Positions 6,250 through 64,000 of a DNA stretch of 64,000 bases are shown here, piece by piece (within the stretch, counting starts at the first letter, position 1; each line of letters opens with the position of its first letter). The notes below the pieces were generated by a model. The model saw only the letters and a program-made list of their open reading frames with translations. It ran no database searches and had not been told where the DNA came from. The translations under genes and the position numbers were made by a program. The DNA is from Leucoraja ocellata. Lineage: Eukaryota. The DNA lies in contig JAWMAR010000036.1 of assembly GCA_036785375.1 (NCBI GenBank), positions 620,001 to 684,000 on the forward strand, given 5' to 3'.

Positions 6250-7075
6250 CCTCATTATAACAGTGTCGGAGGTTACAGGCAGAGAGGTGAGAGTGGGAGT
6301 GTCATGGTAAATTAAAATGGCAGGCAAAAGCATCTCAGATTCACTTCCGCAGATTGAGCGAAGGCTTTTTGTAAAACAATCGCCTAGTATTTGGTTTCTC
6401 CATTGTAGAGAAAGCCGCAATAGTAATCAACATCGAAAATAGTACACTAAATTGGAGGGAGTACAAATGACCTGTTGCTCCACCTGGTTTGAACAGGTGT
6501 TGCATCTCCTCCTGTTCCATGGTAACGTACAATGGGCCAGGAAGTGGCGTGATGGAAGAGTCAATTGGGGAATTGTGAAGTAATTCCCTGTGGAATTCAG
6601 AAAATGAAGAGAGGAGCAGATGTGACTGGTGGTAGGATCACGCTGGATCTGGCAGAAATTGTAAGGGATAAAACGTTGGATCTTTGAACTATTCCAGGAG
6701 ATGAGGGTGAAAGCGGACATACAGGAAATTGAAGAAATGCAGTTGAGTGCTCCATGTGCAATGCAGAAGGGAAACCACATTTCAGGAAAATGGAGGATAC
6801 TTTAGAAGCACCAGAACTGAAGGTGTCTTCATTGGAACAACTATGGCTGAGATGAAGAAACTGAGAAAAATAATTGACATTCGCACACAAGGGGGAGTGA
6901 AATGACATATACTCAAATAAAGCTGCAGGAGTCTGGGGAGCCTTGTGAAGGATGTTAGTAGTTAGCCTATCTCCTGAGATGGACACAGAGTGATCCAGAA
7001 ATGGAAGGATAATGTCAGAGATGAATTACATAAATGTGATAACAGGGTGGAAATTGGCAACACAAGTGATAAAGT
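6250..7075 (-). mobile_element. Degenerate Penelope-like element (RT C-terminus and GIY-YIG remnant)
   Basis: ORF 6597-6986 (LTTNILHK...SQFLHLSHSCSNEDTF...FLKCGFPS) and 6427-6780 (PWNRRRCNTC...FTCTPSNLVY-like) are homologous to the younger Penelope copy at 24391-25200. Confidence 0.8.
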
Positions 7076-7789
7076 AAATGCTCATCTACAGTTTAATTTT
7101 TTTTCTCTGTTATCCATGTCAGGCTAAGTGGTTTGCTGTGTTTTTCTTCCCTTTATCTCCTTTCTTAAACATGGGAATTATGGAAGATGCATCCACTATC
7201 TCCAGCACCATCTCTTTCAAAACATAGGATTGCAGGTTATCACATGGTGGTGATTTATCAGCCCTCTGCCACATTTATTCCTCCAATGTTTTGCTTAAGT
7301 AAAGCTATTTGTTTTTCATCCAGTCTAAACCTATTCTCCATGATATCTCGGAGGATTTTTGCCTTCACAGTAAATAGATATAACATGCTTGTTTAATTTC
7401 TTCTGTTTGCTAATAAACGCATCCTTTCCTTTCTATATTCATAGAGAGGCTTCAGCAGTTTATATGTTGCTTGTGATCCGCCTAACATTTTCAAATCAAT
7501 TTCTTGGTCCTTTGCTGTAATGTGAAATTTACCTAATTGCAAGGATTACTGCTCTTTTTGAAACAACTTTCCTTTCATCTGATACTTTCTTGGTATCCAT
7601 GGCTAGACCACTGCACCTGTTGGGATTCTGTTCATTTAAGGTTCTTATATTTACTGTAAATTATGTATTAATTCTTTAATGTTAGTCATTGAATGTTTAC
7701 CATATGCCTTATAATGTAGTTAACCAATCTATCATAACCAACTTTATTAAGATTCAAGATCCTGTAGGATTCTTTGTTGATTCCCCATG

Positions 7790-8885
7790 CCACTTCAGAC
7801 ATCCTGGTAAACTAAAAAGCATTTGAATAAAATGTGCGAAAATATCATCCATTTCACTGTCTATATTCCCATCAGTTTCGAATGAGACTGCATCAAGAAG
7901 TTGCTGGAGAGGATTCTGAGGAATTGGATATACATGCATTTGGATAGACCTGGGCTGATTAGAGATAGTCAGCATTGTTTTGGCCCTGGGAGAACTTGTT
8001 GAGTTTTTTTAAGTCAACAAAAAGGTTGATGAGGGTAAAGCCATGGACGTGGTCTATATGAACTTCAGCAAGTCATATGATAAGGTTCTGCATGGCAGGC
8101 TGTTCTGGAAATTTAGATCGCATGAGATCCTGGAGAGCTAGCCACTGGATAGAGAATTGGCTTCATGGAAGGAAGCCGAGGTTGACGTTGGAAGGTTTCT
8201 TTTCCAACTGGAGGACTCTGACTTTCAGTGTGTCTGAGGAATCAGTGCTGGGCCCATTGCTGTTTGTGGTTTATATGTATGACTTGGATGAGAATGAAGA
8301 AGGCGTGATTAGTAAGTTTGCAGATGACACTTACAGCAGGAATTTGATCAGCTGGATAAGTAGGCTGAGGAATAGTTAATGGAATTTGATGCAGATAAGT
8401 GTGAGGTGTTGCATTTTAGTGAAGTCAAAATAGGGAAGGACCTTCACATTGAATGGCGGGACCCTGGGGAAGGTGTGGAGCTGTAGGACCCAACAGTACA
8501 GGTACATAGTTCCGTGAAAGTGGCATCACAGGTAGCTAGGATGGTCAAAAAGGCTTTCAGTACATTGGCCTTCATCAGTCAGGGTATCGTATGGAAGTTG
8601 GTGAGGCCGCATTTGAAGTATCGTATTCACTTTTGGTCACCCTGCTGAGGAAAGATGTCATTAAGCTGGAAAGAATGCAGAGAAGATAAGACAAGGATGT
8701 TGCCAGGATTTGAGGGCCTGAACTATGGGGAAAGGTTGATAGGCTTGGACTTTATCCCGTTGAGCACAGAAGGCTGACGGGTGAGCATATAGAGATGTTT
8801 AAAATCATGAAGGAGGTAGATAGGGTGAAAACACAGTCTTTTACCCACGTATGGGAATCAAGAACTAGAGGACATAAGTTTAAGA
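7790..8885 (+). mobile_element. CR1 LINE RT region, 5'-truncated and decayed
   Basis: ORF 8077-8379 contains WIENWL...SVLGPLLFVVYMYDLD...ISKFADDT; upstream DVVY.NFSK motif. Confidence 0.9.
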
Positions 8886-52420: not shown

Positions 52421-52707
52421 GTTCCTCGGTCGCGAGTTTGAGTCTTCAGTGTAGTTTTTTTCTTGCAGAATAAATGTCTGTATGAAATGCAGTGTGTTGA
52501 ATGAATTCCTGAATTTGTAAATGTGACCGCAGCATTGAATCACCTCCCGCACTCATGTCACCCTAGCGGGGCTACATGCCCTAAGGCGGCCTAAGGCGAC
52601 ATTTTCACACTCTTATATCCGTGTGCAGCAGAGACGCCAAACGTGAGCTTTGGTGTGCAGACGACATCCTGGAAAAAAATGTCTGGTTTCTTCCAGGTAG
52701 TCGATAT

Positions 52708-54838
52708 ACCCTCCCGCGCAATATACCCTCCACTTCTCTTTTTAGTTCCCCTTTCTTCCAGGACCGATCCGAGGTTCCGCTGTCACCTCTGCGGGCCACC
52801 CTCGGTGAACGCTCACTCAACTTTGTCTTGGGATTCCTACTCTCCCGGTCAATGTACCCTCACCTTCTCTTTTATGAATGGGGATTTAGTTCCCCTTTCG
52901 TCGAGGACCGACCGGAGGTTCCGCTGTCACCTCCTGCGGGCCGCCCTCGGTGAACGTCCTGTCTCCCTGTCCCTGGGATAGCAGGGGGCGATCAAACAGC
53001 ACTATACCCCCCTCCCCCTCCCCCAACTCCAGAGGAATCCGCTCCCCGAGGGGCCGCTACGGCGACAAGTGGCAGTTCGCCCACAGCCCGAGAACAAGAC
53101 GCACCTTGCGCACCAGCAGCAGCTGCCCCTCTGGAGTTGGAGCGGGCTGGACTGGAGTTGCTGATCTGGGATCTCCGTGCTTGCAGTGGGGCCTGGGGGT
53201 CGATGTCCCGATGAGGGGGCACAGCTTGGGCTGTGGGCGAACTGCCACTTGTCACCGTAGCGGCCCATCGGGGAACGGCTTCTGGTGGTCCCGATGTCTC
53301 CTGCTAGTTTGCAGTTTGCCTCTGGAGTTGGAACGGGGCTGGGCTGCTGCTGGCTGTGGGGTCTCTGGGATCTCCGTGCTTGCAGTGGGCCTGGGGGCCG
53401 GTGTCCCGTTGGTCTTGACGTCTCCGGTGACTGGCATTGCCGACGTGAAGACAGTGCAAAGCCCCCACGCCGGTGCAATGGGCGGGGAGCTGGAGAGGGG
53501 AGGGAAGGGTCACACACATGGCCGGGAAGCAGAGGTGTAGGTGGGGTGAAACTGAAGGGAGCGACAATCTGCAGCTCCCTGCCTGCTGAGATAAAAAAGT
53601 TCCCACGCAAGACTCACGATACACTGTGTATCGTGAGTCTACCGTGGGAATTTTTTAAACTCAGCGGGCAGACAGCAGCATATTGTCAATTATTAACCCT
53701 CCTGCGCAATATACCCTCACCTTCTCTTTTATGGATGGGGATTTAGTTCCCCTTTCTTCCAGGACCGACCTGAGGTTCCGCTGTCACCTCTGCGGGCCAC
53801 CCTCGGTGAACGCTCACTCAACTTTGTCTTGGGATTCGTACTCTCCCGGTCAATGTACCCTCACCTTCTCTTTTATGAATGGGGATTTAGTTCCCCTTTC
53901 GTCGAGGACCGACCGGAGGTTCCGCTGTCACCTCTGCGGGCCGCCCTCGGTGAACGTCCTGTTTCCCTGTCCCTGGGATAGCAGGGGGCGATCAAACAGC
54001 ACAATACCCCCCTCCCCCTCCCCCCCACCCCCAACTCCAGAGGAATCCGCTCCCCGATGGGCCGCTACGGCGACAAGTGGCAGTTCGCCCACAGCCCGAG
54101 CTGGGCGACCTCAAGAACAAGATGCACCTTGCGCACCATCAGTTTCTGCCCCTCTGGAGTTGGAGCGGGGCTGGGCTGGAGTTGCTGATCTGGGATCTCC
54201 GTGCTTGCAGTGGGCCTGGGGGTCGGTGTCCCGATGAGGGGGCACAGCTCGGGCTGTGGGCGAACTGCCACTTGTCGCCATAGTGGCCCATCGGGGAGCG
54301 GCTCCTGGTGGTCTCGATGTCTCCCGCTAGTTCGCAGTTTTCCTCTGGAGTTGGAACGGGGCTGGGCTGCTGCTGGCTGTGGGTCTCTGGGATCTCCGTG
54401 CTTGCAGTGGGCCTGGGGGTCGGTGTCCCGTTGGTCCTGACGTCTCCGGTGACTGGCATTGCCGACGTGAAGACAGTGCAAAGCCCCCACGCCGGTGCAA
54501 TGGGCGGGGAGCTGGAGAGGGGAGGGAAGGGGTCACACACATGGCCGGGAAGCAGAGGTGTAGGTGGGGTGAAACTGAAGGGAGCGACAATCTGCAGCTC
54601 CCTGCCCGCTGAGTTAAAAAAGTTCCCACGCAAGACTCACGATACACTGTGTATCGTGAGTCTACCGTGGGAACTTTTTTAACTCAGCGGGCAGACAGCA
54701 GCAGATTGTCAATTATTAACCCTCCCGCGCAATATACCCTCACCTTCTCTTTTATGGATGGGGATTTAGTTCCCCTTTCTTCGAGGACCGACCGGAGGTT
54801 CCTCTGTCACCTCTGCGGGCCGCCCTCCATGAACGTTT
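52708..54838. repeat. Tandem array of ~1-kb GC-rich units (52708-53695, 53696-54718, partial from 54719)
   Basis: Unit start accctc(c/t)gcgcaatataccctc recurs at 52708, 53696 and 54719; units contain shorter sub-repeats and a 125-nt palindrome. Confidence 0.92.
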
Positions 54839-55149
54839 TCAAGGACCTTTTTTCAAGGACTGAAAAAATGTCGCTATTCGGAGGTTTTCGTTATTTGGAT
54901 CTTCGGATAAAAGGTTGTGCACCTGTATTAGAAATAGAGACAGGAATAAGCCCTTTAGCTTGTGATGCCTGTCCATTATTCATCAAATTATTTTACCTCT
55001 ACCACTCCCTTGTACTAAACCCATATTCCTTGATACCTTTTTGGTCTCTGTGTGGGTGTGACCTCCCGCTGTAGAAATTTCTACTTGCCTATGCCATGGA
55101 ATAGACAATGTGGGAAAGGTGAGTCAGAGTGGAAAAACAGTTTTTTTAA

Positions 55150-56504
55150 ACTGTGCCCAAAAGCCAGTATTAGCCCAGTGCTGATGTGGATCTTGGACAA
55201 GGAGCAATCAAAGCAAAGCAGCGAGAAGAGCTTATTGGCTGAAACCCATGGGAAAGGTGAGTAACGCACAGAGGAAAAACAGTTTAAAACTGAGGAATTT
55301 GTAAATGAGGCAATTTCTCAGTCAATATAAGTAAGGCTGCTCCAAGGGAGCGGCAGTGAGGGAGGTGCCTTGTGAGTTAAGTGTGAGTCTTCGGCGAGGA
55401 GGCTGTGGAGAGGAGGCTACGCAAAAGCTCGCGAGGACGGGACGTGGTGAACACATGACAGGACAGATGAGACAGTGATGCTTGCAGAATGTGGGAGCCC
55501 AGGGACACAGATGGAGTCTCTGGCTGCTACAACTATGGCAAGTGTGTCCAGCTTCAACTCATAAAGGACCGTGTTCGGGCACTGGAGAAGTAGCTGGTGA
55601 CCTCGGGGACATCCGGGAAAACAAGAGTTTCCTGGACAGGACCTTCAGTGAGGTTGGCACGCTGAGGATACGGGAAGAACGAAGGTGTGTGACTGAGAGA
55701 AAGGGTGGTAACCGTGGAGTACAGGAGACCCAGGTGGCTGCGCCTAATGAAAACAGGTACGCCCTCTTGAGAACTGTCGGGGAAAACGTTGTTTCCAGTC
55801 CGAGTGGTAGACACATTGGTGGCTCCAATCCTAGAGATGGGACTCGACCGGCGAGACCAGCGTCAGGCTGAGCCATAGTGGTGGGTGACTCCATTGTCCT
55901 AGGAGCAGACAGGAGATTCTGTGGTGGCAGACGAGACGCGAGGATGATCTGTTGCCTCCCTGGTGCCAGGGTTCAGGATGTCATGAGCCGAATTCAGAAC
56001 ATTCGAGAGAGAAAGAGAGAAGGTGAACATCCAGCAGTAGGCACAAATGACATCAGGATGAAGAGGAAGGAGGTTCTCCAACATGAGTTCAGAGAGTTGG
56101 GAAGAAGACTGAAAGGCAAGACTTCAAGCGTGGTTATCTCTGGATTGCTTCCAGTACCTCGTGCTAGTGAGGACAGGAACAGGGAGATAGGGAATCTGAA
56201 TGTGTGGCTAAGGGGTAGTGCAGGGAGCAAGGATTTAGATTTATAGCCCACTGGGATCTCTTCTGGGATAGAGGATGACCTGTACAAAAGGGACGGGTTA
56301 CACCTTAACTGGAGGGGGACAGACATTCTGGCAGGCAGGTTTGCTAGGGCTACACGTGTGGGTTTAAACTAAATAGTGGGGGGGGAGGGATTGACAAATT
56401 GGGAGTATAAAGATGGAGTTGAAGGGGAAGTGAGTACAGGAAAAATTGCAACAGATTCTCGAATTAATGGGAAAAAAAGTTTGAGAAGGGATAAAAGAGT
56501 AAGG
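55150..56504 (+). mobile_element. CR1 LINE 5' end: 5' UTR and decayed ORF1 (Zn-finger/coiled coil plus SGNH esterase)
   Basis: C..CRMWE....YGKCVQLQLIKDRVRALEK, then VVGDSIV...CCLPGARVQDV...VGTNDI...VVISGLLPVP...DGLHLN, the esterase-type ORF1 of CR1/L2 elements; ORF2 absent. Confidence 0.9.
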
Positions 56505-56654
56505 TTCCAAAGGCATCTGGGCCATTGCATTGTACCACATCTCCTTTGCAGAGGTGAAAGACTGCTTGGTTGCCCCGGGACACCGTCACATTTTTCTTTC
56601 ATTTCCCTCCTTCTACAGTAGCATCAGGATGCATAGCAGGATGAATCGCCTCAT
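56505..56654 (-). pseudogene. ERV env N-terminus (signal peptide and start of SU)
   Basis: ATG at 56654: MRRFILLCILMLL*KEGNEKKNVTVSRGNQAVFHLCKGDVVQCNGPDA, with a hydrophobic leader, NVT sequon and Cys pair, directly downstream of integrase. Confidence 0.55.
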
Positions 56655-56919
56655 TTTAATTTATCTGGAATATGCAAAGGCTCACAAAAAGCTAATTTCT
56701 TACTTAATTGACGATCAACTATTCACTCAAGTTAACCGTCCTTCCATCAGTAAGTCCAGTAATCAGTCGCATATTCTTAACCAAATAAGGATTTAAAACT
56801 AAACTTATAAGGATACAACTGCCAAGCAAAGCAGAAATGTAAAAACTAAAAAAACTCTAAAAACTCTTGTTGAAAATAAAATTACTCTTCTCCCTCCCCC
56901 CTTCCCCCCCCACCCCCCT

Positions 56920-58654
56920 TTTTGATTGGGCTCCCCAATCCATTTGCAGTGGTGCAGATGAACCCATGGAGCACGACCCTTGACCTTGGCAGCAGTCAGT
57001 GGCGAGGAGGACCTGGAAGGGACCATCCCAAAGTGGGGAGAGGTGCTTACGCGTCCAGTTACTGACCAGCACATAGCAACCTGGCTCAATATTAGATGGA
57101 ACTTTGAGTGCTGGCGCCTCGCCATATGCAGCCCTGACCTGTGAATGAGAAGTTCGCAAAGCACGAGCTAAAATTAATACATAGGATGTCATTTCTTCAG
57201 TCATCTGGAGTAAATGGACTGCTGCGGGGGCATGGTCATTCCATGGCGTACATAAAGGTCGACCATAAAATTGTCGTCCCCCGTCCCCTCCATGTTTTGA
57301 TAGTGAGTTCCGTTCTTGGTCGTGCCGTACCAGAAGGAGTGGTCCATATCTGAAAAAGAGCTGCAGGAAGCAGTTTTAACCATGTTAAGCCAGTCTGTGC
57401 CACTAATTTTGCTAATTTGGTTTTCAAGGCTGATTTGCCCGTTCCACCAATCCGGCGGCCTGAGGTCGATACGCACAATGGAGCTGTTGATGTATCTGTA
57501 ATTGTTGGCACATTTCTTTGTTTACAGCAGCAATAAAATGAGGACAATTATCTGAATTTAAACGTGCAGGAACACCGAATCGCGGTATGATTTTGCGTAA
57601 CAATATTTTTACAACGGTAGAGGCCTTATTGTCAGTGGTCGGGTATGCTTCAGTCCATTTACTGAAAACATCGACAATTACAAGAACATACTTATAACAC
57701 TGGCATCTTTCCAACTCAATGTAGTCCATTTGCAAGGTCTCAAAGGGACCTGCTGGTAAAGCGATCTTACCTGGTTCACAGGGCAAGCCTTTACCTGGAT
57801 TATGCTGCTGGCAAATCAGACATCGCTGGCTGATACGCTGGGACAAGTCCAGAAGTTTCGGATGTCACCAGGTCTCTAAAAGCATATCATTTACGCCCTT
57901 GGCACCACAATGAGTTGCAAAGTGTACACATTCAATAACCCACAGCGCAAGCTCATCAGACGTGCAAGTCTGGGTGGCAGGCGTAACCCATAAGTTAGTG
58001 ACAGGATCGTACACACAACCTTGGTCCTGCCACAGCTGTTTTACCTGTGCAGGAGCGTCCTGCATTTGAAGTACTTCCTGGATGGTTGGCATTCCTTTTT
58101 CCAGAGGAGACTGATTCTTACTAGAATTTTTAGTGTGCCTCATCATTCGGGGCATAACAACCTGGTTGGTCTTAGAAGCTTTTTTAGCGGCCTCATCGGC
58201 AAGGCGATTGCCGATATCTATAGGGCTCTATAGGGCAGCTGATTGGAGGCTGTTGTAGATTGCCGATAGAATCTGAGTGCAGTAAGGGTAGCCCAATGCT
58301 ACAGGATCCAACTTGGATGAATAATATGCCACAGGGCGGTGCTTGTTGCCAAGTTTCTGAGTCAAGACAGCTGTTGAGCAGCCATCCATTACCGTGCGAT
58401 AAAGCAGGAAAGGTCGGTCATATAGTGGTTGGCCAAGGGCCGGAGCACTGGCTAAGTCAGTCTTTAATTGTAGAAAGGCCTTTTCTGCCATGTCGTCAAG
58501 CTGAAAGGTGCCATTCATAGAGGTGTACGGAGTCAGATGTTTGGTCATCGTGGTGATGTTAGGGATCCACTGTCTGCAGTAATTGATCATTCCCAGCCAT
58601 TTTTGGACTTGTTTGGCGGTTGTTGGTAGGGACGTATGGCAAATGGGCTGAATC
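56920..58654 (-). pseudogene. ERV pol remnant: RT thumb/connection, RNase H C-terminal helix, integrase
   Basis: PTTAKQVQKWLGMINYCRQWIP, LASAPALG.P.Y..PF.L, RPVAYYSSKLDPVA; GNRLADEAAK; H..THCG, CLICQQHN, LQMDYIEL, VDVFSKWTEAYP, LNSDN, YRPQAAGLVERAN; WDGPFQVLLAT...WVHLHHCK. Confidence 0.95.
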
Positions 58655-59285
58655 AGGCTCCCAATGTTAAATTCCTGGGATATGTGGGCAGCCATGTTAG
58701 TAATGCTAGAGGATTCATCAGGGACATAGTTGCAGCATTCCTGCCCTATAAAAGCACAAGTCCCTCCTTTTATTCTACAGGGCTATGGTGCGAAGTGCAA
58801 CCAATTCAGCTGTTTTGGATGAGAGGGCCTTTTGCGTGTAGGTAAAGGCATCCGCAGTTTCATTAACCAATTTCTCCAATGCAGAGGCCATATTAATCAA
58901 TTCCCATGATAGGTGGGCTGTCCCGTAATGTGGGAAGGCAATCATCCAGAATCGCTTTGACTTCGCTTAGCCCTCATGGGGATATACAATTCCATTAGAT
59001 GTTACACAGCTCACATGTGAGGGACAGCGAAGGCCAATCCCTTCAGTTGTAGGTTGGCCTGATCAACCTTTCCCAGTTCTTCTCATCCTCGGGTGGCATA
59101 CCAGGTAACCATGGATATGCCCAGAATCCGCACACAAAATACGTCCCATTTATTAGACGCGGCGGGCCACTAGCACTAACCTTGGTGCAGGTGCTGTTCC
59201 CTAAGTATACCCCCTTGCCTCCTTGGTTACAATAACGACTGGGCTGTGGGAGCAATCCACTAATTTGAGCCGTGGTATATCCCAA
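58655..59285 (-). pseudogene. ERV env SU C-terminus and TM ectodomain (gamma-type)
   Basis: NGTYFVCGFWAYPWLP; furin site RAKR (58974-58963); heptad repeat ELINMASALEKLVNETADAF...ELVALRTIAL*N; CX6CC motif CAFIGQECC (58758-58732). Confidence 0.88.
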
Positions 59286-59904
59286 ACCCTGATCTCATTT
59301 ACTTTCTATCCCGACTTAAAAGGGGCCACACATTTACTTGCCTGGGGACAGGAAACCTGGTTGCTCATTTGCATTCCAAAAGACAAACACCGTGATCACA
59401 TCAAAACAAGCTTTCCCAAAAGAACTCAAACTCACTCAGTAATCCATAACTATTTGCCAATATCCTTAAACCATTTTAAAAATAGATCATTATTAAGAAA
59501 AAACAATTAAAAAAATAATTCCCAATTGTTCCAATCTATCTCCCCAAATTCACAATTTCTAATTCCTAGTATAAATGTATATTAATCACAATTTTCCCAA
59601 ATTAACATTTTTTCTGCGATATTGGCATCTTAATCTCATCTAACACTTTAACCAGGATGCCAAAAGCATCCGGGTCTCTTTTTGAACTCAATTAAAAAGA
59701 TAAGAAATAGAACGAAAACAAACTTAAAACATGGATAAGACTAAACAAACTGCATATTTGCATCTCTCCTCTGTTTAAAAGTTAAGAGAAAACAAAGAAT
59801 AACCCGTTAATTTCCACACAAATAGATAAGCATATCCAAAGAACAAGGGAAAATAAAATAATTGTGTGTGGCTCCACCCGCACACAACTGCAACTTCTTA
59901 AAAA

Positions 59905-61872
59905 CTTCATAATTGGCGGTCACTCAAAACGACTATGACTGTCCTCTCCATAGGGTCATCTACTTGTGGGTCTGCAGATGTCTAGAGGCCGATCCACGAT
60001 CCACACGCCTTCATGCAACGTGGGCAGTGGAGATTGGTGGTGGTTGGTAGTCGTCGAGCCCCCTTCTCTCTCTCCTTACGGTGCTGTCGCTTTGTCTCTG
60101 CGATACAAATCGTGACGTGCAGCTCCTTCCTGCATGGATTTCCTCCAGGAGTGCCTGTCCAGTGCAATGTGTTCCCAGTTGCTCGATGTGATATGGAAAT
60201 TCTTCAGACTGTTCTTGATGTTGTCCTTGAAGTGTTTCTTTGGCCTGCCGGGGGCTCGCCGGCCTTCCTTCAATTGAGAATACAGGATTTGTTCAGTGAG
60301 ACGTGTGTTGGACATGCGGATGACATGGCCAGTCCATCGAAGTTGCTGCTGCATTATTGTGGTGGTGATGCTGGTCATGTTGGCTTCCTCCAAAACGCTG
60401 ATGTTGGTGCGTTTCTCCTCCTAGCTGATCCTCAGAATCCTTCGTAAGGATCTTTGATGGTATTGTTCCAGGGCTCTCAGATACCTGCTGTAGGTGGTCC
60501 ATAAAATGGCTCCATACAACAGGGTGGAGAGGACAACGGCTCTGTAGACCAGCAGTTTTGTTTGAGCCTTTAGGTCTCGGTCTTCAAAGACTCTTTTCCT
60601 GAGTCGGGCGTAGGCTCCACTGCCACAACTCAGGCGATGGTTGACTTCAGAGTCGATGTCAGCTTTTGAGGAAAGAATGCTGCCAAGGTAGGGGAAGTGG
60701 TCAACGTTTTCAAGAGTGGTGTCGTCCACTTTTATGATGAGCTTGGTAGACGGCTGGTTAGGTGTAGGTTGATGTAGGACCTGGGTATCCTTGATATTTA
60801 AGGTTAGGCCCATGGCTCTGTATGCCTTGGCAAAGGCATTCAGGATGCCCCAGAGGCCTTCTGCAGCGTGTTCTGCAATGGCGTACATGAGCTTGAAGTA
60901 TGGCAGCAATGAAGACGACAAACAGGGTGGATGCGATGATGCATCCCTGTTTGACCCCTGTTCCCACAGTGAAGGGCACGGGCTCAGAGCCACAGTTGCT
61001 GAGCACTGACCGACATGCCATCATGTAGAAGCCTCAAAATTCTGATATACTTATCGTGATAACCGTGCCTTTATAGTATGCTCCAAAGAGCCTACTGAGT
61101 CAAAAGCCTTTGTCAGGTCTATGAAGGCAGGGCTCTCACTTAACTTTTTTTCACTGTTGCCAGTCGGGCAACCTCAACAGCTTTTTAGGCAGCCGAATGA
61201 CAGTTTAGATGGTCATTTAAGACGGTTTGCATGACGCATGCGATAACGTGCTCGGACGAAGTGCGTAGTTACCAGTCGGAAACGTTGCCTATTTCCTTCG
61301 CTCCATAGATGCTGCCGCATCCGCTGAGTTTCTCCAGCACTTTTGTCTACACTCACATGTTATTTCTGCTTCAAATAAAGTCACAAACTAAACATATTCA
61401 CAAATCAAGGCATGATGTATACCACAATGACATGCAGCAAAATTAGAATACAGTACCTGGCTCGTACCATGACATAGTCAATGAGATGCCACTGTTTGGA
61501 GAGTGGGTGTCTCCAAGATACCGTAAGTTTATTTTTCTGGCGAAAGAGGGTGTTCGAGATGCTGAGCAAATTTACTTTGAAGCAGAGCTCCATTGGAGTT
61601 GATATTCCCGATGCCTTTATTTCCTATGGTACCCTGCCAGAGGTAATTGTCCCGGCCGACCCTGGTGTTGAAGTCTCCTAGGAGAATAATCTTATCCTCC
61701 CTGGGGATTTTAGACAGTCTCATTCAAGCAGGCATGGAAGGTCTCTTTTGCTTCCTCTTCCAAGTCTGAAGTAGGGGCATAGGCACTCACAACTGTTGCC
61801 ATCTGGTTGTTGGCAAGCACCAGACGGATGGTCATGAGACGCTCACTGATTCCCACAGGAAGTTCAGACACT
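59905..61872 (-). mobile_element. RTE-clade LINE, internally deleted, inserted in the ERV leader
   Basis: Endonuclease VSAYAPT, ILLGDFNTRVG, SWRHPLSKQWHLIDYVMVR; RT FIDLTKAFDS, GVKQGCIIASTLF, VDHFPYLGS, LRWTGHVIRM; C-terminal CPRC..ACGS.IGL..H zinc finger. Confidence 0.92.
61128..61450. mobile_element. One-ended hAT-like fragment with nested Penelope pLTR piece, at the RTE deletion junction
   Basis: Begins CAGGGCTCTCACTTAAC; contains gaaacgttgcc...gctgagtttctccagcacttttgtctac; second TIR not found. Confidence 0.45.
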
Positions 61873-63055
61873 ACCTCGTAAAACACATGAGACTCTACAA
61901 TTATTTATTACGTAGAAGGGCAAAATCATTCAATGATATTCTTTTTTTTATCTGAATTAAAGGATTAATTCAACATTCACCCAAAAGCAGTTCCACCAAC
62001 ATATAACAATCTTTAAACTCTCTTACTTTATACATTTTTTTCTGTGACATTTACTCACAAGTAGCCACACCTCATGCAATATGCTAAATATCACAGATAT
62101 TCACAATGAAATTCTCACTCAAAAGTAAAACACAATTATACACACCTCAAGGAAATTATTCAAACTCTTAAACTTGGATACACCCAAATACGCTCATAAG
62201 CTTGCCCACTATTCCACACATTTACTGAATTAACATGGAATTTTCACAAAGAAAATGGGCATTACAATTAGGTTTTTAAATTGTAAGGTGTATCTCCATT
62301 GTTTTCCCTCCTTACCAGCATGGGTAAGGAAGTGTATATAATATAAAAGAACAGGCAGAAAAACATCAGGTGCAAACTTGTCCGAGAGGGGTGAGCCAGA
62401 GGCAAGCAAAAGAGTCAATGGCACAGCCCTCTCGTTTCCAAAAACTGCGTTGTGCGGCAGAGGAGTCACTCTGTATCAACTTTACATCGCCCATGTCTTG
62501 GCAAGGCCATTCTGTCTACTAGAAACTTTGGTTCTGTGGGGACCAATGTGCAGAATTCGGTGCCTTGGCAGAGGCAAGGGGGCGACAGTAGCATCCTGTT
62601 TCAATAATGCTCTGCGTTGTTTAACTATCTCACTGATAGCCTCAATTACTGCTCCTCCTTCCCCTTTTCTACAAACAGGGTTGCCATGCCAGACAAGGGG
62701 TCCCTGGAGTTATTTTGTTTTGGCACCTATTTTTCCTCTTTTTATTTTACCAATTGTCGCTTAATTTGCGACTCAATCATGCCTTTTCTTTTTTGGCCTT
62801 TTCCTCTTGTTACCAATTACATTCTGCTTGTTACACATCCCAATTCTTAGGTATACCATCCTCTATCTCTTTTCTGCCTTTTTAACAGTTTCTACATTCC
62901 ATGTTCCTCCGACTGGCTATAATTCATGGCATCCACCATGTCATTCTTATAGATCAATCACGTTTGCTGATCTGATCGTGTCTGTGTTTAGTGATGTGCA
63001 CCCGGTCCATAATCCAGTTCAGGTTTTTTTAATATATCATTCGGCAGGCATATAG

Positions 63056-63197
63056 TGACAGTATAGCCATAAGTTAGTTAGTTAGTTAGTCCTGAAGTCT
63101 GGAGAAGATAGTACTACTATGTGTTTTCTCTACATATTCACTCAATAAAGAACTTGTATTTGAAGTTAATCGACTCAATGTTATTACAGCTTCAACA
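63056..63197 (+). mobile_element. 5' LTR of a Ty3/Gypsy retrotransposon (142 bp)
   Basis: TG...CA termini, AATAAA at 63144-63149, immediately followed by a PBS. Confidence 0.8.
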
Positions 63198-63211
63198 TGG
63201 TGTCAGAAGTG
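63198..63211 (+). promoter_or_regulatory. Primer-binding site complementary to the tRNA-Leu 3' end
   Basis: TGGTGTCAGAAGTG directly after the LTR CA. Confidence 0.8.
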
Positions 63212-63266
63212 AAGAACTGACTCCTCCATTGATTTTACTGTTTTTATTTTGTAAATCGTTTTTACC

Positions 63267-64000
63267 ATGGCTGACCCTACATAAGCCTGACCCGTTAGTA
63301 TTTGATGCTGACATCAGATTACGATGGCGTGTTTTCGAAGAAGATTACGATGTCTACATGGATGCTGCTCATCATGACAAGCCCCCACGAGTCCAAGCAT
63401 CTATTCTTAACTCGGCTGGTCTGGAGGCAATTCGACGAGCAAAGCTGTTTGTCTATGCAACGGCTGTGCATGATGCAGCTGGTGCAATCGTTACACCAAC
63501 GGAATCGATCCACGATCTGATATTCTTGAAGAACAAGTTTAGATGGCTTTGTGACCCGCGGACCAATCTTATCATAAAACGCCAAAAGTTTTTTGTGTGC
63601 CAGAAGCCAGGTGAGCCTGTTGAAGCTTATATCAACTCGCTGAAACACATTGCCAGCAGTTGCAGATTTGGTGATCTTTGTGAAGAGCTCATCAGAGACA
63701 GGCTCGCGTGTGGTGTCCTTAATGACAAATTGAGAAGGGATCTGCAACGTGCCTCAGATCTCACCATAAACAAGGCTGAACAGACTTGTCGAATCCACGA
63801 GGTAACAAATGCTCACTCTTTGAGCTCCACACCGCAGTCTGCCTTGAGCATAGAATGTATTTCAGAATGCAACGCTGACCAAAGGACATGCCTGGCAGGC
63901 CTGGAGCACAATCTATCAGTGAATGTACCAACTGTGGTGGCTCTCACAGCCAAACGGGAAAAATGCCCAGCTTTTGGGAAAATTTGTCATGGTTGCAATC
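63267..64000 (+). pseudogene. Gypsy gag (frameshifted), running off the window end
   Basis: WRVFEEDYDVY...QKPGEPVEAYINSLKHIASSCRFGDLCEELIRDRLACGV...LTINKAEQTCR, then Zn knuckle CTNCGGSH...CPAFGKICHGC. Confidence 0.88.

Follow-up and report, generated by a model that had tools for sequence, protein, structure and literature searches.

Structure of the locus

The window analyzed here is a 64,000-nucleotide stretch of the Leucoraja ocellata assembly, and the locus of interest, described below in the 5' to 3' direction of the minus strand, runs from 62927 to 56502 in window coordinates. Five joints mark it: two outer joints to CR1 pieces, one joint between two families of endogenous retroviruses (ERVs) that we call A and B, and two internal deletions. 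The 5' edge is formed by the end of a CR1-type LINE ORF2 fragment (62928..62947, minus strand), which is cut on its 3' side and directly abuts the interior of family A; relatives of family A diverge from the window upstream of 62927. Into this CR1 fragment a gypsy-like LTR element has been inserted that is unrelated to A and B (62948..64000, plus strand), and beyond the insertion a CR1-like reading resumes, extending down to 62928. The inserted element has a 5' LTR at 62948-63197, a primer site from 63198 followed by a gag-like frame, and a 3' LTR that lies outside the window at C36:685467; it is about 2.5 kb long and internally deleted, its two LTRs are 86% identical, and its 5-bp target duplication can be read at both ends. 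We take it to be Ty3/gypsy-like from its gag motifs (Pfam gave no match on the gag-like frame), just as we assume from their motifs that the LINE pieces at both edges of the locus are CR1. The start of its primer site is like that of family B.

Family A occupies the first part of the locus. The 5' part of its interior (61865..62927, minus strand) is 78-88% identical to many family-A copies and contains a decayed pol relic at about 62515-62366, corresponding to the RNase H end/integrase N-terminus (pol profile positions 887-935, E 5e-4). The 5' LTR, primer site and leader of the family are absent. A LINE of 1.96 kb, recognized by translation, with a short repeat at 61279-61350 and presumably RTE-like to judge from its motifs, is inserted next (59903..61864, minus strand); the site is empty in two family-A relatives (L037 and L047). 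Behind it the interior continues as an AT-rich non-coding stretch (59326..59902, minus strand), with 78-90% identity to family-A copies in a genome search in which the best 40 of 1348 first-look candidates were scored. The original prediction read the sequence upstream of the env piece as a retroviral leader, and we considered 59326-59902 as an LTR or a leader; both assignments had to be dropped, as this is family-A AT-rich interior, split by the LINE and without LTR or primer site. An internal deletion at 59325..59326 (minus strand) has removed about 1.5 kb relative to C47, comprising an integrase relic and the 5' part of env. What follows is the middle of the family-A env (58652..59325, minus strand), with the end of SU, the RAKR site at 58974-58963, a heptad-like stretch at 58966-58778 and the CX6CC motif at 58758-58732. 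All of these motifs had been called beforehand, and all are present on the minus strand. The env middle is 83-85% identical to C218, C1 and C362, which run on into the TM anchor; at the locus, the membrane anchor and the 3' LTR are gone.

At the A/B junction (58652..58654, minus strand) the env middle meets the reverse transcriptase (RT) of family B, in frame and at a 3-bp microhomology (GAT). The RT thumb and connection (58234..58654, minus strand; pol profile 482-622) are identical to the family-B copy C1489 at 395/421 positions, gap-free. Most of RNase H is absent (pol profile positions 623-845), about 670 bp having been lost at a deletion joint (58224..58243, minus strand) that carries a 10-bp tandem duplication, which fits end joining. 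The remaining RNase H end and the integrase (56990..58229, minus strand) contain a stop codon and frameshifts; the integrase matches rve with an E-value of 8e-20, and MLVIN_C below the cut-off. They are followed by the family-B pre-env spacer and env start (56502..56989, minus strand), where the ATG at 56654 is followed by a stop after 13 codons. An env start after the integrase was part of the original prediction, and it is borne out: MRRFILLCILMLL at 56654 matches the env start of the canonical copy C1489. After 56502, the remainder of the family-B env and the 3' LTR are missing; relatives go on into env, and in a search over this region, with 1296 first-look candidates, the scored matches end at 56502. 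The 3' edge of the locus is the adjoining end of a CR1-type LINE ORF1 with its spacer (55860..56501, plus strand; weak GDSL-like match, E 0.01), which is cut before ORF2 in the window, whereas five out of five relatives examined run into an endonuclease-like frame.

Across the A/B joint runs a stop-free frame of 184 codons (58782-58231), beginning just before CX6CC and ending in the RT thumb/connection. Its residues 5-32 resemble the TM of Syncytin-1 (E 0.005), residues 51-176 resemble MLV/XMRV-type RT (E 2e-25), and residues 96-181 match Pfam RT_RNaseH_2 (E 1e-14); on the short env pieces of the window, Pfam gave no match. The proposed fusion of TM and RT without a stop thus holds from CX6CC onward, but it does not extend to the rest of the env middle: just 43 env codons, beginning shortly before CX6CC, are in frame with RT, and the env middle is spread over three frames with stops, with RAKR and CX6CC in one, the heptad stretch in a second and the SU end in a third. 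Since it lacks an LTR and a primer site, and no start lies in that frame ahead of the TM loop, we predict that no protein is made from the locus, and it cannot move.

Elsewhere in the window, at 52700-54840, there are about two tandem units of around 1 kb that share 94-99% identity; a 125-bp palindrome (arms of 62 nt) and inverted GC-rich sub-repeats occur in each. A similar unit is found in L061 near 6900-7800.

The two parent families

Complete copies of family A (e.g., L052, L057, L058 and L036/L037, on C84, C208, C21 and C47) measure about 4.3-6.3 kb and consist of an LTR of about 580 bp, a primer site, a leader, decayed pol relics, an AT-rich interior, env and the second LTR; the share of this family in the window is 58652-62927. 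It includes at least 2 env types, and most copies are without RT. Among 40 places scanned, a match to the RT core inside family A was found at a single one (L153), in a set where some stretches omit the 5' part; a possible out-of-order RT relic (E 0.01) was seen in 1 of 11 sequences and was not recovered by the profile. Given its RT-less copies, family A needs a helper. An apparent integrase after env in L148 and L152 was discarded, as these were false matches to a Penelope-like frame. The primer site corresponds to the 3' end of tRNA-Ser(AGA) genes in the same genome. With a furin site (RAKR) and CX6CC in the window, and a membrane anchor in the three closest relatives, the family-A env appears to be gamma-type.

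Family B is represented by C1489, an ordinary gag-pro-pol-env provirus with its 5' end cut by a LINE and the domain order zf-CCHC, RVP (below the cut-off), RVT_1, RNase_H, rve and TLV_coat. The best solved-structure relatives of the family are of the MLV/XMRV RT type (E 2e-95), its env gives TLV_coat and HR1-HR2 matches, and we regard it as a class I (gamma/epsilon-like) ERV. In a 33-row tree, its RT falls into a chondrichthyan clade (100/100), apart from the gag-p30 gamma-like proteins, and is sister to WEHV1 with a support of 90/88, which is under the starred threshold, in a tree where WEHV1 is the sole named exogenous virus. A related pol family of the same genome is 99-100% identical to annotated proteins of Leucoraja erinacea and 96% identical to those of Amblyraja radiata. 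Young family-B copies have LTRs of 1.45 kb, and their primer site matches tRNA-Leu(CAG) genes in 9/11 LTR pairs; ARAGORN gave tRNA calls at 3 places, in 1 of the 5 stretches tested. The B parent of the window itself no longer has a primer site, and Leu is assigned to it from these younger relatives. Genome-wide, the 3' end of tRNA-Leu is matched exactly at 349 places; in the stretches tested most of them drew no tRNA call, and they suggest an abundant tRNA-Leu-derived repeat.

One young subfamily of B (L141, L143, L144; C629, C72, C242) is RT-less: a gag piece is joined to RNase H, the integrase is split by a 620-bp AT-rich insert, and env has an internal deletion. Its LTRs are 99.9-100% identical in 9/11 pairs (LTR pairs L112-L139), and this near-identity points to recent amplification. 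At C5156 (L023-L025) and at C332:668286-675782, a 6314-bp unit that includes part of a B integrase along with CR1 DNA occurs in tandem, with 99.9% identity. We considered the tandem B copies at C5156 as a model for the locus and rejected them, because LINE DNA is included and they look like segmental repeats.

The original prediction took the 2 env pieces of the window to be parts of one split, permuted env. The TM loop of the window, however, is identical to the family-B env at just 12 of 31 positions, and at the nucleotide level nothing in the canonical B copy C1489 matches the env middle. Between the LTRs of A and B nothing was found beyond chance, the best match being 26 bp (E 0.007). By these comparisons, the env middle and the env start stem from different env genes, those of unrelated ERV families. 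The loads of rare changes are 97/1860 in the family-A part and 70/1496 in the family-B part. A younger age of the B integrase was considered, as a first estimate of its terminal branch was 0.030 versus 0.058-0.076, and was given up when more relatives placed B at 0.035-0.069 and the loads proved alike. The nearest relatives of the A part differ from it by 8-10% and change by segment, and no close donor copy was found among the best 40 of 589-1348 first-look candidates scored (candidate numbers that are not copy numbers).

Window 59606-59518, in the A interior, matches a module in RT-less B elements at 80% identity and 73 bits, where the best of 500 random controls reached 31. This 92-nt piece sits, in the same direction, in an 855-bp non-coding insert within the RT-less B integrase. 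Of 15 loci fetched, 4 are B elements with the piece, and the majority of the rest fall into another group that lacks B pol. We see in the shared module a hint that the A and B lineages swapped sequence while they were mobile.

The junction in the assembly and in sequencing runs

We searched the assembly for further occurrences of the junction. A 26-letter pattern over the joint, with up to 3 mismatches allowed, had a single match in 3.44 Gb (a control pattern had 0), and in a 91-base junction search, in which 3 of 3 candidates were scored, the joint was spanned by the window alone. With the junction query, the env side was matched at many places up to query base 302, and the pol side at C1489 from base 297, with the window alone spanning both sides (41 matches; best 40 of 91 candidates scored). 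None of 21 family-A env places runs into family B, and 10 of them lead to a 3' end or LTR of the A type (some of the places are duplicate pairs). The B RT thumb was found at more than 90% identity over its length in the window and in C1489 alone, among the best 40 of 44 candidates.

Assembled contigs of sequencing runs bridge the joint in 4/4 runs, namely X1, X2 and X3 from organism A and X5 from organism B; the former are 3 samples from one study, possibly the source of the assembly, while X5 comes from another study. The bridging contigs reach at least 31 letters to each side, with 1-4 differences and a depth of 4.8-33, against a depth of hundreds to thousands for the repeated flanks of the joint. 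No bridging piece was among those listed for X8 (organism B, the sample of X5, 86% of the run covered), nor among those listed for organisms C, D and E; pieces from other species end at 58654 or 58652. The joint is single-copy in the assembly, real, and common to organisms A and B, and from its presence in both it probably predates their split. The check for misassembly that the original prediction called for is thereby passed. Of the internal deletions, the one in family A (59326/59325) is spanned by contigs of X1, X2 and X8, and the RNase H deletion joint by an X2 contig. At window position 58653, inside the microhomology, the three organism-A runs differ from the assembly, with which organism B agrees; this is either a polymorphism or an assembly error. 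Among the datasets listed as containing the sequence, none is RNA.

Origin of the fused locus

The ends of the locus bear on how it arose. No A or B LTR was found in the window or in the 40 kb upstream (C36:684001-724000), and the 5' half of family B is absent from the same two stretches. Around the fused structure neither a target duplication nor an LTR pair survives, both edges being joined to CR1 pieces. As both outer edges are joints to 3'-cut CR1 LINEs, deletions at this locus have fused unrelated neighbors, and the two outer joints are best explained as chromosomal deletions. The RNase H deletion is not present in C1489, apart from the window the sole place with a close match to the B RT thumb, and in an informal look the A deletion at 59326/59325 was seen in no other A copy. 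A background count of deletions in A copies was abandoned, since it was confounded by insertions in two reference copies.

We favor, with a probability of roughly 0.55, the reading that parts of two ERVs form a chimera here, present in a single copy and fused by a deletion within nested or neighboring proviruses. The two parents, the breakpoints, the uniqueness of the joint, the missing ends and the occurrence in a second species are observed, while the sequence of events and the mode of repair are what we infer: an RT-less, env-bearing family-A element and a family-B provirus would have been nested or adjacent, both pointing the same way. Repair of a break at the 3-bp microhomology would then have removed the A env anchor together with the 3' LTR of A, and perhaps also the 5' half of B, leaving the A TM loop against the B RT thumb. 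Similar deletions would account for the truncation at both outer ends and for the gaps in the middle of A and in the RNase H of B, and the match of frames across the joint would be due to chance (one in three). Our preference is based on the demonstrable loss of DNA at the locus, the differing primers and LTRs, the unspread joint, and a precedent in the same genome. At C1032 (L065/L056; C1032:352000-360200), a B-like pol is followed, about 110 bp further on, by an A element of the same orientation; the A element is broken off in env and lacks its 3' end, and the remainder of the B-like pol is missing as well, making this place a mirror image of the window. Because the LTRs of A and B are dissimilar and their primers are Ser and Leu, respectively, a recombinant made by one crossover would have mismatched ends. 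There are also points against the deletion reading. With the B 5' half absent from the window and the 40 kb upstream, it must assume that at least 6 kb was lost; the similar rare-change loads are what would be expected if A and B had been inserted together; the 92-nt module shared by A and the amplified RT-less B elements hints at contact between the two lineages; and microhomology, and deletion with duplication, are described as arising in reverse transcription too (PMC3187697, PMC6112702).

Of these points, the similar loads and the shared module speak for the other leading reading, a recombinant like the koala recKoRV, which we consider a serious contender at somewhat less than even odds. 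A and B RNAs would have been co-packaged, RT would have jumped at the 3-bp match (probably in two jumps, keeping the B ends), and the product would have integrated once and later lost both LTRs by deletion. Template switching and the collapse of two proviruses were also the mechanisms named in the original prediction, which in this respect anticipated both of our leading readings. The shared orientation of the A and B parts, their similar age, the non-coding module common to A and RT-less B elements, and the need of the mostly RT-less family A for a helper are all in keeping with recombination, for which the koala provides an analogue, KoRV combined with the dissimilar, defective PhER (as outlined in PMC6112702). 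On the other hand, no LTR pair or target duplication, the features by which the two readings are told apart in koala, survives, A and B differ in primers and LTRs, and there is no spread, the same breakpoint occurring at no further site in 3.44 Gb. Non-homologous jumps are given in PMC3187697 as at least 1000-fold rarer than homologous ones, a donor A locus was not found among the best 40 candidates scored, and the two outer joints require chromosomal deletions anyway. Much less probable is an artificial joining of two repeat copies during assembly: both halves are indeed repeats, the support for the joint consists of short contigs and not of long reads, and X8, from the same sample as X5, yielded no bridging piece among those listed, but the contigs of X1, X2, X3 and X5 do bridge it, the last from another organism and another study, and we give this explanation next to no weight. 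The original prediction went further and envisaged a non-autonomous ERV family, amplified in the genome, whose env would be split and permuted and whose TM would be fused to RT. The gene order and the joint in frame do exist, and a second species carries the joint as well; yet the junction is unique to this locus, relatives of both parents keep the ordinary order (an outcome that the prediction itself had named as speaking against it), no family-A env place leads into B, the two env pieces come from different genes, and there are no LTRs. We consider such a family highly improbable, and for this assembly the permuted, amplified architecture is refuted.

Comparison with known systems gives parallels for both leading readings. 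In the koala, 5/17 KoRV-PhER breakpoints lie at microhomologies (PMC6112702), and recKoRV likewise combines a full retrovirus with a dissimilar element that is degraded, present in many copies and has retained mainly env; recKoRV is joined at a microhomology and encodes no intact virus (PMC6112702 and PMC10536682). The skate locus correspondingly has two dissimilar ERV parents, one of them defective, and a breakpoint at a 3-bp microhomology. It differs in that recKoRV1 has kept both KoRV LTRs and its target duplications and occurs at many loci, whereas the skate locus is devoid of LTRs, is present once, has decayed by about 5% and is found in two species. Chimeras of nested LTR elements made at microhomologies are known from maize, where nested or neighboring centromeric CR elements are joined at a few identical bases and show internal deletions and lost ends (PMC4806543); the skate locus similarly combines locus-specific breakpoints with other deletion joints. 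The maize partners are close subtypes of one plant family, whereas the skate partners belong to two vertebrate ERV families that are unrelated and differ in env, LTR and primer. For six cartilaginous fish, gamma-type env ERVs and frequent recombination between pol and env are reported in a preprint (bioRxiv 10.1101/2021.11.23.469661), and the families described here are like these class I, epsilon-related ERVs in the position of the B RT within a chondrichthyan clade, the TLV_coat match of the B env, and the furin site and CX6CC of the A env. The exchange of env that we found described there takes place at its normal position and not as an env piece upstream of pol, and families A or B may be among the lineages named in that work. 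A literature search, with most subscription papers outside its reach, retrieved no ERV with env before pol and no account of these skate families.

By itself, the locus is a decayed one-off and carries little weight, beyond illustrating that an env upstream of pol can stem from two viruses; its presence in two species makes it usable as a dated marker. If the template-switch reading were true, recombination of the recKoRV type with an unrelated defective element would reach cartilaginous fish, and a possible helper would be named for the abundant RT-less family A. A broader version, in which the locus is a fossil of recKoRV-like co-packaging between an env-bearing, RT-less skate ERV and an unrelated helper with another tRNA primer, and an instance of a more general exchange among non-autonomous ERVs of skates, one that also moved the AT-rich module, is speculative, and we think it rather unlikely.

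More useful than the locus are the two amplified, RT-less, env-retaining ERV groups and the non-coding module that they share. An AT-rich non-coding module of about 750 bp (L203:5670-6530; C41:5113670-5114530) is common to the RT-less B elements and a third repeat group. In the module loci, which include L205-L219, the 92 nt match the A interior at 72-83% and stand right after a pyrimidine tract and AG; our guess is that the module could be a captured cis-element or splice acceptor.
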